A stretch of DNA of 63,271 nt, filler included, from Porpidia crustulata (lineage: Eukaryota), in NCBI GenBank assembly GCA_964255105.1. It is 9 parts of 9 records of this genome, joined end to end, with 100 filler letters (N's around TTAATTAATTAA, not from the genome) between each part and the next. Parts side by side here need not be neighbours in the genome. Positions count along the whole stretch, not along the records: positions 14,106 to 21,054 come from CAXUWE010001420.1; 8 more parts are not named here. One strand, given 5' to 3'. The notes below the pieces were generated by a model that was not told the origin of the DNA, did not search any database, and saw only the letters and a list, made by a program, of their open reading frames with translations. Every line of letters begins with the position of its first letter. Within the stretch, counting starts at the first letter, position 1. This document shows positions 14,150-21,054 of this stretch, one piece after another. The translations under genes were made by a program, and so were the position numbers.

Positions 14150-14526
14150 TTGAACAGCAAACTGAGGCTACATCATCTACGGACGATATACTGGATCAAT
14201 ATCTTCGCAGAACAGCTACATCCAATAGCGACAGTTTTGATGCGTTTGTGACGGGGCAGATTATCGAATTTGGTCATGGTATGGGGGGTAGTCATCTACA
14301 GCTGGCTTAGGGATAATTGTAGTCCATCAGTTCAAGAGCATGCCTTTGAACTACTATCAATTCCGGCGATGTCTGCGGAGGTTGAACATGTCTTTAGTAG
14401 CACTAAGCTGCCAGTCACTCTACGGTGGAACTCGATGTCAGAGGAAAGGATTGAATACCTTGAACTACTGAAGTATAGGTGGAGGAACAAATACTCGTAT
14501 CCACCCCTCGTTCGATTACACCCCTA
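14150..14526 (+). mobile_element. hAT DNA transposon remnant (transposase C-terminal dimerization domain plus right end)
   Basis: HAFELLSIPAMSAEVEHVFSSTKL...SMSEERIEYLELLKYRW matches the hAT dimerization motif (LSIPAxSAxxERxFS). It is followed by ...CACCCCTA (reverse complement TAGGGGTG, a hAT-like terminus) and the 8-mer GTTCGAAC, which fits the nTnnnnAn hAT target pattern. The left boundary is not visible. Confidence 0.75.
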
Positions 14527-14612
14527 GTTCGAACATCGCACCTAGGGTTAGGGCTGTGGAAAACTTGGGCACTAGCTAGGGGTGTAATCAAACGAGGGGT
14601 GGATATGAGTAT
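14491..14612. repeat. 36-bp inverted repeat (arms 14491-14526 and 14577-14612, 50-nt spacer)
   Basis: atactcgtatccacccctcgttcgattacaccccta versus the reverse complement of the right arm, atactcatatccacccctcgtttgattacaccccta: 34/36 identical, and both differences are transitions at CpG. Confidence 0.92.
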
Positions 14613-14853
14613 CTTAGTTTAGGAGTGGCACCAAAGAATTGCAGGGGCTGTGTGCGATAGTGCTGTTGTCAGCGGCGCTAAGATCTTTCCCGGACGACGA
14701 TATATGCCAAACCGAGGGAGCCTACTGAGCTCTCCAGGTTTGAATTCTATGTGAATAGATATTCCTAGAATAGGATCCATAAGATCTGTTGCAACGAGAA
14801 TCTTACGAGTTCACCTCCGAACTCCGCTCTAGTCGAGCGAACTGACAGCTATT

Positions 14854-16488
14854 GTGCCACGCCTCTGGTGCTGGCACGTGAGCACCCTGATCGTGACCCC
14901 TGGACTGGATCTTGCGCCTAAGAGAACCCGAGAAAGTGCTTCCAGAGTTCGAACTGGATGCAGCACTTGCAAAGCTCGTCGAGTGCAATGCGATGAAGCA
15001 AAGCCTGTCTGTCGACGTTGCGCCGTTAACGGTCGAACATGCGTGTACAACACCGCACGTACATCACCAGCACGTCGAAATGTGATCACGGTATATCTGC
15101 CTCCTATGCTAAGTCAACCGGCATTCTTCGTAAATGACCGCTGCCTCGACTTCTTCCACCAGGATCTTGCTGGGAAATTGGACGGACAATTCGATTCAAA
15201 GTTCTGGAGCAAGCTTGTATTGCAACTATCACACTCCGAACCATCGATTCGACATGCCGTATCAGCTATCAGCGTCATTTATCAAGACGTCGAATCGTCT
15301 TTACGGTATCCGGCAGGCTATGTCACTGCCAACCCCGAGGGTCAACAGGAGTGGAATACAGCAATCAAAAGCCTATCAGCTCGAATGAAAGCGCATCCCA
15401 ACTCGAACTTGGTACCTTTGGTCTGCTGCCTTCTGTTCACGTGTATCGAGTTCCTCAGGGGCAATGTTGAATCTTCTATGCTTCACATTCAGAGTGGATC
15501 CAATATTCTAGCTGCGCTCCGTTGCAAAAGCGATGCAGCCCCGGATCTAGGATCCAATCTCTCGTCCAACGATCTTAAAGCCATTGAAGATCATATCGTT
15601 CCGATGTTCTCACGTTTGAACGTACTCTGTTCTCTCGCTGGTAGAACGACTCCGCCAATATACGCTCTTACAGCTAAAGAAGACTCTCCTCAGGAAGACC
15701 TTACCGATTCTAGACAACGGCTCTCCGAGATCTCAGATACCTGCATCCGATTCATCGGCGAAGCCAGTCTGAAGGCAGCTAAGTTCCAAATTGACGTCGA
15801 CGACTTCGTTGAACAGATTAAGCTTCAAACAAGGCTAGACAAATGGCGCGACCAGCTAGTTGAACTTCTTGAACGAATGCAGGCTGCCGGCAACCCGGCG
15901 CAACAGGACGCGGTCAATCTACTTTTGGTGCAATATAAAGTCATTGACATCTGGATGCGAGTCTGTACCATAGCTGGGGAAACGGCCACAGACTTCTACC
16001 ACACCGACTTTGAAGAGCTTGTGCATTAAGCGGAACAGATCGTCAAGCCAGGCGTGGGAATGGCAACACCGCAACCGCTGTCTTTCGACATTCATATCTT
16101 GGGGCCTCTGTACTATGCCGCGCTGAAATGCCGTCATCCCGCAATACGAAGACGCGCGCTGGAAATGCTGCAATCGGCGCCTCGGCGGGAGGGGCTCTGG
16201 AATGCACATCACGCATACGTGACTGCCAAACGAGTGACCGAGCTGAAAGAAGGGCATCTCAACGGGCAAGAATTGCCAGACGAGACTTCGAGACTGCATG
16301 GTCTGGTCCTGCCCGATGATGAGTCACGGATCTATAACCCGGGCGAGATGCCTTTTGAATTTCGGATGTTTGACCGCAGCATCGTGCCCAGCCCGGCTTA
16401 TCCAGACACGCTTAAAGCTGTGTTTCACACAAAGCCCTGGGGGCTATTGGGAGAGTGGCAGACAATCACGGAGTATCTCAGGCTATGA
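14854..16488 (+). pseudogene. Zn2Cys6 transcription factor (fungal-specific TF domain) with an internal in-frame TAA; start uncertain
   Basis: Zinc cluster RTGCSTCKARRVQCDEAKPVCRRCAVNGRTC, and middle region FWSKLVLQLSHSEPSIRHAVSAIS and LVCCLLFTCIEFLRGN. TAA at 16027-16029 is followed in frame by AEQIVKPG...GPLYYAALKCRHPAIRRRALEML...RREGLWN to TGA 16488. There is no in-frame ATG just before the zinc cluster. Confidence 0.8.
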
Positions 16489-16721: not shown

Positions 16722-17749
16722 TCAAGGCTTATACCTCTGTTGCAAGTGAATATCTCCTATAGACGAGCTGCTCGTGGCCAAAGCAGCCTTTCTGGACTGC
16801 CTGACCGACCAAGCCGCGCTGCTCCACTTGCCACCAAACGCAATAGCAGGGTGCAGGACCGTCATCGCAAGTACCGCCAGGAAAATCATCGGCCCCTCCA
16901 AGATCATAAAAGACACCTCGTTATTGGCAATGGGCCCATTGAAACCTTGCTGCAGCTCCGCAACACGGTATACCGAACGAGTGAAGATGAGCACAACAGC
17001 CGTGCCGAGCGCATACTGGAACCAAGTGAACTTCTTCGTATCCCTCAGCTCGACGAAGCGTACGTCCTTGGCGCTCTCACTAGTTCTGCGGAGGCGAAAT
17101 ATGAATTCCAACCACAATCCCATGAAGAAGAGCAGCGAGACGACTTGAAACACAACACCAGCGACCATGATGGCCCTTCCTGTCTCGGTCTTGGAGTGAT
17201 TATCGGCTGTGGCTGCGAGCCCGCCGCCGGCGCCCTGAAGGACGAGCGAGATGAAGTCGCTTGTCATGAAGGTGATTGCGTAGATGCGCGGGCTGAAGCG
17301 GGAGATTTGCTGGCCGTAGACGATGATTATGCGGGAGAGGCAGAGGTAGAGGGCGCCGGTGAGGAAGGCGGGGGCGACTGTTAGGGGGACGAGATAGCTA
17401 TGAGGGTTGTCAGAACTCTGTTCTCGGATTTGGATGGGATGCAAGATTGAGGAGGGAAAGAGAAGGCTTACATGATAAAATTGTTGAAGTCAAATGGGTT
17501 GTCATGCAGCATGATTCTGCCGGCATATCCAACAACCTCAAGAATGAGACCACAGATCATGCCAACCATGAATCCCCAAGTCTTGTACTTAATGCCGAGC
17601 CCGAGCTGCGCGACCAGAAGCAGGCCAAAAGCAGCGGCATAGACGGCACTGCCAGCAAGCGTGGGTAGATGTTCCACCTGAGCGCAGCTGAGGGGACATC
17701 TTCCCACGGTACAGTTTTCAATACTTTGGAGAGGACAAGTGTCTGGCAT
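16722..17749 (-). CDS. RTA1/Rsb1-family lipid-translocating membrane protein
   Basis: ATG 17749, intron 17398-17471. Motifs LEVVGYAGRIMLHDNPF, LTVAPAFLTGALYLCLSRII, YAITFMTSDFISLVLQGAGGG and RSVYRVAELQQGF...NNEVSFMILEG. Confidence 0.92.
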
Positions 17750-18596
17750 CTTGGCCGTAGAGTCAAAAAGATGAGAGTTGAAATTGGAGAGCGAGGAAGA
17801 AGAAAAGCACGATTGATTTGATGATTTGATCTGGGCCCATCTCCATGAAGCATTCCCGCCTATAAATACATTCTCTCCACCACCCTCTTCGCAGCCTTAA
17901 CATCGACTCTCAGGATCTGCATGCCTTCGCAATTCACGACTTCGGTCCAAAAGGGGCCAGATGACTACGAAAAAGCCGTGCAGCCAGCGTGTCAGCCTGA
18001 ATCTCGAGACCCGCATACCATGATTCGCCCATTTCAGCAGGAACTCGAAGTTCGCATGCTGAAAGCTCCACTCAACTGCGACACTACGAAGCTACGAGGC
18101 TTGAAGGACCGCGCGGCGAGCAGGTAAGGAGGGAAGCGTTGACCCGTTGCGCGTCGACACCCTAAGGTACCTAGCCGAGAGTAGGTAAGCCTGTGGCGAC
18201 GACTCTTGATTGGCGCATGGACGAGCATCTCGTAGTCGCCTAACCAAAACCCATCTAGCAAGCGTCTAACCAGAAAAGGGTGTATATTGAACTACCACAC
18301 ATTTTGAGGCAGCCGTCCATCCATGAACTCATCAGGTCAGTCTGATTGGTGCCGTTTCTACCAATGAACTGGAGTCTCGCACAGTCATCTTAGAATTCTG
18401 TTGCCTTGCCTTCGCACGTGGGGTTGTCGGCGTTCGTTGGCAAAACTGGGATTATTTGCGCTATACAGCACTAGGCATCATTTCTCAGGAATTTAGTTGC
18501 ACGAAAGACGGCCGTGTCGTCTTTTAACAGTAATTTTAGGCTCCGCAGCATTCTCTTCGCTAAACGACAACGTCGGTCAGGGCATCGCTGCACATC

Positions 18597-19186
18597 ATGG
18601 CCGTGAAGATAGCGGCGAATAGAACGGTTGATATTGCCCTGCGAGCGCTGCAGCTTATCTTCGCCATCATCGTCATGGGAACAGACGGCTACGGTATGGA
18701 GTATTAATGTCTCCGACTCTGTCGACGCACCGTTGAGTCTGACCCCATCGCCTAGCTATCCATGTGTTTCGCGGCCACACCGTCTACGAACACTTCAAGT
18801 TCGGCGACTTCTACGATTACTACGGCGTCCCTGATGCATGGGGCTTCTTACTGTTTTGTGCGGCGTGGACATTTCTTGGCGTCATCTTCCTCCTCATTAC
18901 TGGAATCGGCTTCGCGGATCATGCGTTGATTGGTTACATTCGTGTCGCCGTCGAGGCTGTGGCTTTCCTCTCATGGCTTGCTGGTTTCATTGCTGTGGCT
19001 GTTAACATAGGGAGCAATGCATGTCCGGCAGAAGAGAGCCACTGTGGGTCGCTCAAAGCGGCGACAGTCTTTGGGGCGCTGGAATGGCTGCTATCCGTGG
19101 TTACCACAATTCTGACTATTAAGCTCGTCTTCAACAGCACTCGCCGAGCAAGGACTTTTACAACTAGGCCCGCTATACCTATTTGA
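18597..19186 (+). CDS. MARVEL (membrane-associating) domain four-TM protein
   Basis: ATG 18597 (MAVKIAANRTVDIALRALQLIFAIIVMGTDGY), intron 18694-18755. Then WGFLLFCAAWT, VEAVAFLSWLAGFIAVA and CGSLKAATVFGALEWLL. Confidence 0.88.
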
Positions 19187-19769
19187 TCAGCGGCATAGGA
19201 CGCCAGTGGAAATCAGAACCATCCGACACGCTACAGACCGTTGAAAGTATCGCCATCGTCTTTTGAGAAAAGCATTTTACAATGGGATATGCTTGAGTGA
19301 TACATCCTCAAACGATTACAGGACTGGCAAAGGAGCCAGATGTTGATACCTCTGCTTTGAATTATGATAGAATACCTAATGTTCAAATAAATAGATCGCT
19401 ATCGAAAGCAGGATGACGAATGACTTCTGATTGAAATCAGGTGTATGTGACCACGTTTGTCGACATCTCGGATAAACACGAATCCCCCGGTATCGGCAGG
19501 CCAAATCGGAGTTATTGGGAGCTTCTAGCTATCTTAACTCCTACCCCCACACCCTAATTGATCCGCTTCTAGGCATCCGAATTCGGACGAATGAAGATTC
19601 GCTCATCTGGCATGATCCTACCTGGAGGATGATGCCGCATCTGCATGTCCCCTCCATGAGACAAAGATACATGGGATCGTCCATTTCGCTGATCTCGTGG
19701 TTGATCCACTGGCTCGACCTCTTCATTCGGAACTGCTGCAGACATTGCAGACACCGACACATTTTCCGA

Positions 19770-20757
19770 GGAGCTTGCTCTATTCTTGATCCGACGTTGC
19801 ACGAGCTTTATAATAACCTCTGTAGAGCCGTCAGGAAGAGGGAAAAGATAGACGTGGGACATCCTGGCTCATTGTCAGCCCCTGGATTGAGCGCCTCGAG
19901 GTGCAGCGGCGGTAAGGGTACCGTCTTACCTTCTACGTCAACCCCTCCAAAACCAGCCTGTCTATTCTGTCCGTCTTTTCCCTTTACCTCTGCCTTGCCG
20001 TTATGAGGGAAAGCTCCAATACGCGCTCCTGAAAAACATCGGCTAGAAGTAGGAACGTTATCTGGTCTCTCATAACTTCGTGGATGAATATGGAGTCATC
20101 CTCTGTCCACGGGGAGACGAGAACGTTCACAAGATCAACCACATCAAATAAGCGCTTCCCTCGCTTTTTAGTCGTCGTATAGCCCTCTTTGAGTAGCGCG
20201 TTGCGAACCCACTGTTGGTGAGCCGATCAGCATAACAGCCCTTGAAGTGTCCCGTATTCCGACAACACTCACAAAATAGACCTCGTTTTCTTAATTCATC
20301 GCTGACCACTGCCCCGGCGATCCGCTGGAAGCCGGCGAAAATTTCTTCAGACTGTTTTTGATCGACTTAAAGTTGGGCACCTCGGCGAGCCGGCCAGGAC
20401 GGGACTTGCAATACCATCGGGCGAAGTCTTTGATGAGAACATTGCTAGGGGTCGGGCAGTTCTTCTGTAGACACTCCGAGGTAGGAATGCCCCTTGTCGA
20501 CCGGAAACCGAATAAATCTGATCAGCATTTCTTAGGATGACCAGGGAAACAGAAACCCTTCAGTACCCCCCGTCGTCGGATTCGAGCACCCACATTATCC
20601 ATTGATCCCGCGCCTCCCGCTATTTCCGTTTGCATCTCTTCCTAGCTTCGTCCTTCCTTTGCTGTATGCCGTCCTCCTCTTCACGGACCCCCGGGGCACC
20701 CAGCCGTTCTCCTCCGCCGTTCGCCGGTAATCCTCCGCGGTAACGTTTTCGACCCAT
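19770..20757 (-). pseudogene. Degraded DUF3435-type tyrosine recombinase (Starship 'captain'-like), N-terminal half only
   Basis: Manual reconstruction across introns (~20518-20593, 20212-20272, ~19864-19929) and frameshifts: MGRKR/TAEDYRRTAEENGWVP/..KRK*REARDQW..IKDFARWYCKSRPGRLAEVPNFKSIKNSLKKF/AGFQRIAG..EVYF|WVRNALLKEG..KRGKRLFDVVDL..WTEDDSIFIHEVMRDQITFLLLA/CFSGARIGAF..EGLT*K|DV/HVYLFPLPDGSTEVIIKLVQRRIKN. Similarity to DUF3435 captains is recognised from memory of the family, not from a search. Confidence 0.78.
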
Positions 20758-21054
20758 CCGAAGGAGGCGAAGAAACCAGTGAGGGCAAGGGCAATAAGAA
20801 AGAGAGAAAAAGAGAAAGAAAGAATATAAGACGAATGCAATTGAACACCGACAACGAAACCATATCTTCGAACCACAAACATCACGCGTGCCGTGCACCG
20901 CCCGAAACACCCGACACCGCCGCGCCGGGAGTCCCCCATTTTTCGACTCGCCGGCCAAGGGGAGACTCCGAAATTGGACCCGCGCGGTTGCGTTGATTGG
21001 TTCGAGCGGATGGCGGTTGGTGAGGGTTGGTGAAGGGGGAAGGGAAGGGGGCCG

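Follow-up and report, generated by a model that had tools for sequence, protein, structure and literature searches.

On the minus strand, the first ~250 codons of a tyrosine recombinase gene of the DUF3435 captain type, the type that drives the giant Starship transposons of fungi, lie at positions 20757-19761, counted from the ATG used by the family (20757). The window, by which is meant the whole 63-kb stretch of DNA that was analysed, comprises nine unrelated contigs of ~6.9-7.0 kb each, joined by linkers of the form N44-TTAATTAATTAA-N44. The gene fragment resides on the third contig (14106-21054), and arguments from its neighbourhood are valid only inside that contig. The features are given below in order along the contig, where L denotes related metagenomic loci and P related proteins. 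Lesions were called by alignment to five relatives.

14252-14527, plus strand: hAT transposase dimerisation-domain remnant (Pfam E 2e-6)
14833-16488, plus strand: Zn2Cys6 transcription-factor frame (Zn_clus and Fungal_trans_2)
16725-17896, minus strand: RTA1 gene (Pfam E 2.6e-63)
18743-19186, plus strand: MARVEL-domain gene (Pfam E 1.1e-18)
19187-19749, no strand: unrelated spacer between the breakpoint and the MARVEL gene, matching neither the relatives nor the DUF3435 profile, save for a Cys-motif likeness at noise level
19750-19760, minus strand: breakpoint; the family's fourth intron would start at 19760 (GTG...)
19761-19863, minus strand: exon 4 remnant; DV, a +1 frameshift at 19857, then HVYLFPLPDGSTEVIIKLVQRRIKN...EN
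19864-19929, minus strand: intron 3, 66 nt; GTAAGA ... CTGAC ... CAG; kept in L001, L003, L004 and L005
19930-20211, minus strand: exon 3 remnant; WVRNALLKEG ... WTEDDSIFIHEVMRDQITFLLL, SGARIGAF, GLT*K; frameshifts at ~20039 (-1) and ~19966 (+1); TAG at 19935-19933
20212-20272, minus strand: intron 2, 61 nt; GTGAGT ... CTGAT ... CAG; kept in L001, L003 and L006
20273-20517, minus strand: exon 2 remnant; IKDFARWYCKSRPGRL ... FAGFQR ... EVYF; frameshifts at ~20341 (-1) and ~20285 (+1)
20518-20566, minus strand: probable intron 1, 49 nt; GT..AG with a CTGAT branch-like motif
20567-20757, minus strand: exon 1 remnant; family ATG at 20757-20755; frameshifts at ~20743 (+1) and ~20696 (+2); TAG at 20622-20620
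20758-21054, minus strand: partial 5' block, the captain 5' flank and promoter region; 21049-20932 aligns to the block of L003, L004 and L006 (tblastx, alignment)

Only one public run containing the stretch was found (run X1; share of words 1.00). A Logan contig of this run is identical to positions 18700-21048 of the window (2,349 bases, 0 differences, 0 gaps); it crosses the ~19750 breakpoint and stops at 21048, at most 6 bases from the end of the window contig. Run X1 may derive from the same sample as the window assembly. Since it is possibly the window's own source, the agreement excludes an error of the assembler but not one of sequencing. A second run X1 contig (2.5 kb) has 61 bp in common with positions 20373-20433, with 5 differences, and is probably another, diverged copy of the captain family in this sample.

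Exons, introns and lesions of the captain remnant

All of the peptides that an earlier note on this DNA had quoted as traces of a hidden gene were found in minus-strand frames between 19569 and 20521. IKDFARWYCKSRPGRL lies in the frame 20291-20521, AGFQR in 20127-20366, WVRNALLKEG together with WTEDDSIFIHEVMRDQITFLLL in 19984-20226, and QRRIKN in 19569-19868; SGARIGAF occupies 20032-20009, and GLT*K was also confirmed. The start is placed by the related protein P0010, whose Met1 aligns at 20757, and by an ATG context common to L006 and L005.

Two of the three GT-AG introns proposed in that note, 20272-20212 and 19929-19864, are kept in relatives, and the first (20566-20518) is probable only. 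Both conserved introns retain their GT..AG ends and a CTGA(C/T) branch-like motif in all relatives that cover them, and the annotated protein P0020 has no extra residues at either position. Excision of intron 2 joins EVYF to WVRN, matching DVYRW of P0020, and GL.Y.D is continuous across the intron 3 position in P0020 and other annotated proteins. Intron 3 carries a window-specific 10-nt insertion. L006 has an intron comparable to the probable intron 1; in the window the two ends of this intron do not preserve the reading phase of the exons around it, and the position that serves L006 as acceptor is mutated.

The window copy bears seven frameshifts and two TAG stops in total, and splicing therefore yields no uninterrupted frame. 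Both in-frame stops, which had been noticed before, are real: at 20622-20620 L006 has CAG and P0010 has Gln, and at 19935-19933 all four aligned relatives (4/4) read TGG. Seven frameshifting indels replace the "several" 1-nt frameshifts described earlier, the one at ~20696 being a 2-nt shift. As had been stated, the relic is missed by ORF-based tracks, and gene callers overlook it as well.

Three pairs (20743/20696, 20341/20285 and 20039/19966) account for six of the seven frameshifts, the frame being regained after 47-73 nt; the third pair encloses SGARIGAF, which is out of frame with its neighbours. We see no explanation for this pairing past chance in a decaying sequence. Over 406 informative columns, 51 substitutions are specific to the lineage of the window copy, more than for any other of the six copies compared. 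RIP is not supported as the cause of decay, as 14 of the 51 substitutions are C>T or G>A versus 17 that are T>C or A>G, with no C>T in CpA and a GC content of 0.53.

Assignment to DUF3435 and relatives of the fragment

Pfam DUF3435 was not matched by any of six single-frame pieces of the window, even at E <= 10 (0/6), where these pieces span only about the first 100 of the 418 profile positions. A Polyhedrin match of one piece (E 0.013) fell below the cut-off and was discarded as a chance match. A profile of 748 positions was built from seven full-length DUF3435 proteins and run on every stop-to-stop ORF in the window (2,850). It gave five colinear matches, all on the minus strand:

20294-20521, minus strand: profile positions 66-113, E 1.9e-4
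20130-20366, minus strand: profile positions 110-131, E 4.7 (weak alone)
19987-20226, minus strand: profile positions 135-191, E 2e-12
19811-20095, minus strand: profile positions 194-213, CwTGARigaF motif, E 0.14 (weak alone)
19572-19868, minus strand: profile positions 221-252, E 1.7 (weak alone)

No credible match past position 252 of 748 was found on any of the nine contigs. The first two matches support exon 2, together with tblastn matches of P0155, P0020 and P0024 and with the indels seen against L001, L003 and L006. The third and fourth support exon 3, and the fifth, with tblastn matches of P0001, P0003, P0004 and P0032, supports exon 4.

A word-indexed search with 19987-20226 (minus strand) returned 71 candidates, three of which (P0001-P0003) are related to this part of exon 3, with 69-77% identity and E values of 3e-24 to 6e-21. 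These are short, unnamed proteins, and two of the three reach DUF3435 below the threshold (17.3 and 11.3 bits versus 25.8; profile positions 1-69). With P0003 as the query, phmmer matched, among 1.84 billion representatives, at least 150 proteins at E <= 1e-3 and at least 44 at E <= 1e-10; those listed are mostly short fragments. Thirteen of these relatives were scanned with Pfam: 10/13 are above the DUF3435 cut-off, one is below it and two short ones have no match, and the seven longest score E 1e-20 to 5e-32. The long relatives include annotated proteins of Aspergillus tanneri, Lecanora helva, Colletotrichum caudatum and Aspergillus spectabilis, and a 901-aa protein from a Cirrosporium MAG. 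The nearest annotated full-length proteins are 43-48% identical to the window across 57-61 aligned residues. When 152 related proteins were compared with the 63-kb window by tblastn (E <= 1e-3), 155 matches were obtained, all within 19686-20757 and none elsewhere.

Relatives at the DNA level were sought by scanning JGI metagenome contigs, in which 130 pattern matches led to nine confirmed loci (L001-L009). By all-against-all blastn, L002 is the same as L004, and L006, L007 and L008 represent a single locus (99.8-100% identity). The weak match L009 (38 residues, E 3e-4) lies on a contig crowded with overlapping long ORFs and was rejected as spurious. The five distinct relatives that remain after merging are, by blastn, 79% (L001; 642 bp, E 4e-152), 75% (L003), 78% (L004), 75% (L005) and 73% (L006) identical to the window. 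L001 seems intact over its 1.9-kb contig. Its exons exceed the Pfam DUF3435 cut-off (61.2 and 32.9 bits versus 25.8) and encode a Cys-rich tail as well as the motifs HALRR, LGH and DYL. The match to L001, combined with the confinement of all 155 tblastn matches to 19686-20757, puts homology beyond chance. The DUF3435 resemblance claimed in the earlier note is thus upheld by significant profile matches in the window itself, by L001 and by the relatives of P0003.

The other copies are damaged in differing ways. Exon 1 is missing from L003, which also has in-frame stops; L004 ends at about residue 300, and L005 departs from the window ~40 bp ahead of the breakpoint of the window copy. In L006 (3436-4990), residues ~1-220 are fused to a Cys-rich tail (~543-729 of P0155) with loss of the catalytic core. 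Most of this family is therefore dead. A P450 gene fragment lies downstream of the captain relative in L006. Outside the captain region, no sequence common to the window contig and the related loci was found.

Truncation, 5' block and neighbouring genes

The captain catalytic pentad is R-K-H-R-Y (PMC10104507). Only its first Arg and its Lys have counterparts in the window, as assigned by motif order and invariance in 8/8 full-length relatives, not by structural alignment. The Arg position is codon 20023-21 in SGARIGAF, where G-A-R is invariant, and the Lys position is codon 19787-85 in RRIKN, which corresponds to the invariant Lys of W.KNN. No match at E <= 10 was obtained when the family profile was searched against PDB sequences. 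The region with the His, the second Arg and the Tyr, represented by HALRR, LGH and DYL in L001, is absent across the whole 63-kb window.

In a multiple alignment the window tracks L001, L003 and L004 up to the GT at 19760 and is unrelated to them thereafter. The similarity fades within ~10-30 nt (19781-19750), and blastn matches end at 19780-19781. L001, L003 and L004 stay alike past ...NNKDPENS, through the fourth intron and into the catalytic DUF3435 exons, which bears out the earlier proposal that the catalytic half is missing after ~19770. The gap between the breakpoint and the MARVEL gene is only ~560 bp, too short to accommodate the ~370 or more codons that are missing.

On the other side of the gene, L003, L004 and L006 have mutually unrelated flanks and a common upstream block that begins sharply ~460 bp before the ATG, as measured in L006. 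Its onset is at ~2985 in L006, ~700 in L003 and ~3750 in L004. The block has a TATAAAA-containing core; the bases just before it are TTAC in L006 and TTAT in L003. It resembles a transposable-element terminus and is a candidate 5' terminus of the family. The window contig runs into this block and stops ~115-125 bp short of its onset. The 5' end of the element would thus lie just beyond the contig end, in line with the left boundary predicted by the earlier note at or beyond this point, and the break in the contig is itself explained by its ending inside a repeated element terminus. Within the contig, the captain gene points inward from the conserved block. A captain is described as the first gene of its Starship, with the upstream boundary mostly lying within 2 kb of its start, and at most ~7 kb from it (PMC11162782). 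No terminus, no direct or inverted repeat and no empty site could be seen on the 6.9-kb contig, and a repeat search gave no fragment-related terminal-repeat candidates. Rfam found no family in the whole window, and thus no 5S rDNA or tRNA target nearby.

Degraded or 'Starship-like' regions have been defined by DUF3723, ferric reductase, patatin-like or NLR genes (PMC9156397). None of these hallmarks was found by Pfam among eight ORFs of the contig (>=90 aa; 5.6 kb), which gave only hAT dimerisation, Zn_clus with Fungal_trans_2, RTA1 and MARVEL. An in-frame TAA (16027-16029) without an obvious surrounding intron breaks the Zn2Cys6 frame, which may be another pseudogene of this contig. The end of the hAT remnant is overlapped by an inverted repeat of 37 nt (14491-14612; 48-nt spacer, 95% complementarity). 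With the captain block at one end and the hAT remnant at the other, the contig has transposon debris at both ends.

The RTA1 protein shares 89% identity with a protein of Lachnellula. In a quick tree (the careful search being unfinished) it groups with Leotiomycetes with a support of 87, and the tree mostly follows fungal classes. The subfamily is 75-89% identical over Leotiomycetes, Sordariomycetes, Dothideomycetes and one Talaromyces, and a second paralogue group is at ~50%. The Talaromyces and Mariannaea sequences fall among those of Leotiomycetes, which hints at occasional transfer. The tree makes no case for RTA1 as horizontally moved cargo, and its grouping would fit a gene that is resident in the host, not one that travelled as cargo. 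The host itself is placed in Pezizomycotina by the RTA1 neighbour and by the named relatives of the fragment, all of which belong to that group.

Origin of the relic and comparison with known elements

The reading that we prefer, with a probability of roughly 0.85, is that the region is a non-functional relic, consisting of the 5' third (~250 of 600-900 codons) of a captain-type DUF3435 gene and part of the conserved DNA that precedes it. The relic is unable to encode a recombinase and has no present function. Most likely, a Starship-type element, or at least its captain-bearing 5' end, would have inserted into the genome of a Pezizomycotina fungus, probably a Leotiomycete-like one. A deletion or rearrangement would then have taken everything from the fourth intron on, including the catalytic His, second Arg and Tyr, and the piece left over would have drifted neutrally, gaining its seven frameshifts and two nonsense codons. 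The homology, the lesions, the point of truncation and the conserved 5' block running off the contig are shown directly; the order of these events, like the mobile, cargo-carrying ancestor, is what we infer from the remnant. The earlier note had called the region the 5' end of a derelict Starship: a dead captain 5' stump is indeed present, and the 5' end of the element would be just off the contig, but a 6.9-kb contig is too short to carry the claim as far as a cargo-carrying Starship.

The ancestor may never have been a giant Starship at all. The fragment could instead descend from a small, cargo-less element, whether captain-only or Crypton-like, or from a dispersed multi-copy DUF3435 family. 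All six distinct copies of the family are known as gene-sized similarity only, and L006 is an internal-deletion derivative of a kind common in small transposons. Most predicted Starship tyrosine recombinases are likewise solo, with 559 in bounded elements and 10,212 solo genes, of which 'many may be pseudogenes'; against this, the authors ascribe the ratio mostly to assembly limits (PMC11162782). The long relatives are moreover typical DUF3435 proteins of 580-1050 aa. We regard such an origin as unlikely, though as the likeliest of the alternatives.

It is unlikely to a greater degree that the fragment heads a bounded derelict Starship whose captain alone decayed, by internal deletion, while its cargo (the MARVEL, RTA1 and Zn2Cys6 genes, 14.1-19.2 kb) survived. 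The gene does point inward from the conserved 5' block, as captains do, captains usually start within 2 kb of the upstream boundary (PMC11162782), and degraded Starships with persisting cargo have been documented (PMC9156397). The RTA1 subfamily also shows 80-89% identity across four fungal classes, with a Talaromyces sequence among Leotiomycete ones. However, no hallmark accessory gene was recognised in the eight scanned ORFs, the contig and the related loci have only the captain region in common, and the RTA1 tree separates mostly by class and places the window among Leotiomycetes, as expected under vertical descent. More doubtful still is the wider proposal that the fragment and its metagenomic relatives constitute an undescribed Starship family of uncultured Leotiomycete-like fungi, characterised by the ~460-bp 5' terminal block, a possible TTAC-type junction and internal-deletion derivatives (L006), with the window's MARVEL, RTA1 and Zn2Cys6 genes as surviving cargo.

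Very improbable is a reading in which the window copy is itself an L006-like internal-deletion derivative, composed of the N-terminal third and a Cys-rich C-terminal tail in 19544-19807 (minus strand). L006, L007 and L008 show exactly this architecture, with residues ~4-220 of P0155 joined to 543-729, and the segment has a C-x2-C...W-x2-H...RCG pattern that can be aligned with the tail at the C-terminus of P0110 (pairwise E 0.042; profile E 2.8). These scores are at noise level, however: another pairwise comparison gave E 0.43, P0132 had no match at the site, none of four candidates among longer database proteins was related (0/4), and there is no DNA similarity to the tails of L001 or L006. 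This interpretation of the segment was consequently dropped. It is hardly credible that the true gene is intact and that a fragmented or chimeric assembly produced the frameshifts, stops or truncation as artefacts, since, although the assembly is highly fragmented (~7 kb contigs) and the contig terminates within a repeated block, another assembler produced an identical contig across the breakpoint, the RTA1 and MARVEL genes on the same contig are open and high-scoring, and two of the lesions are substitutions giving TAG, not indels.

There are 11 named families of Starship captains. The relic of a captain-type gene described here has the homologous N-terminal third, G-A-R and W.KNN in common with Starship captains (DUF3435, PF11917), an example of which is HhpA of Hephaestus (PMC10104507), and it agrees with them in its inward orientation from a conserved 5' block and in its Pezizomycotina host. 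The insertion site of Hephaestus is given as TTAC(N7)A (PMC10104507), and the TTAC that precedes the block in L006 equals the core of this target; being the only instance, the agreement may be coincidental. Unlike captains, the window copy has only ~250 codons, seven frameshifts and two stops and is devoid of the catalytic His, second Arg and Tyr, and unlike the elements of captains, the window has no demonstrable termini, repeats or cargo. CryptonF elements, the fungal Cryptons, are tyrosine-recombinase DNA transposons that form the outgroup of Starship recombinases (PMC11162782), whereas the relatives of the window that were found are all DUF3435 proteins.

The 'Derelict' of Macrophomina phaseolina is likewise an inactive remnant, an end-state of Starship birth-and-death, but such regions are described as hallmark cargo without DUF3435 (PMC9156397). 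The window presents the reverse, a stump of DUF3435 beside which no hallmark cargo is visible. The closest counterparts are the solo or pseudogenised recombinases of the starfish study, which predicted 10,771 recombinase genes and removed fragments and pseudogenes by filtering (PMC11162782). The window copy belongs to the same class, being shortened, with no detectable element boundaries and with active-site residues missing, and would have been filtered there. We see no substantive difference from that class; the window copy stems from a fungus that is uncultured or poorly assembled, and gene callers miss it.

Dead and solo captains have already been widely reported, and the relic in the window is a member of an ordinary, common class. 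Its annotation matters little alone, as that of one transposon relic overlooked by ORF-based tracks. It adds one data point to the view that most captain-type recombinase genes of fungi are solo or dead. The comparison with its relatives has also given a usable 5' terminal block, with which intact members of the family could be sought in long-read assemblies of the same habitat.
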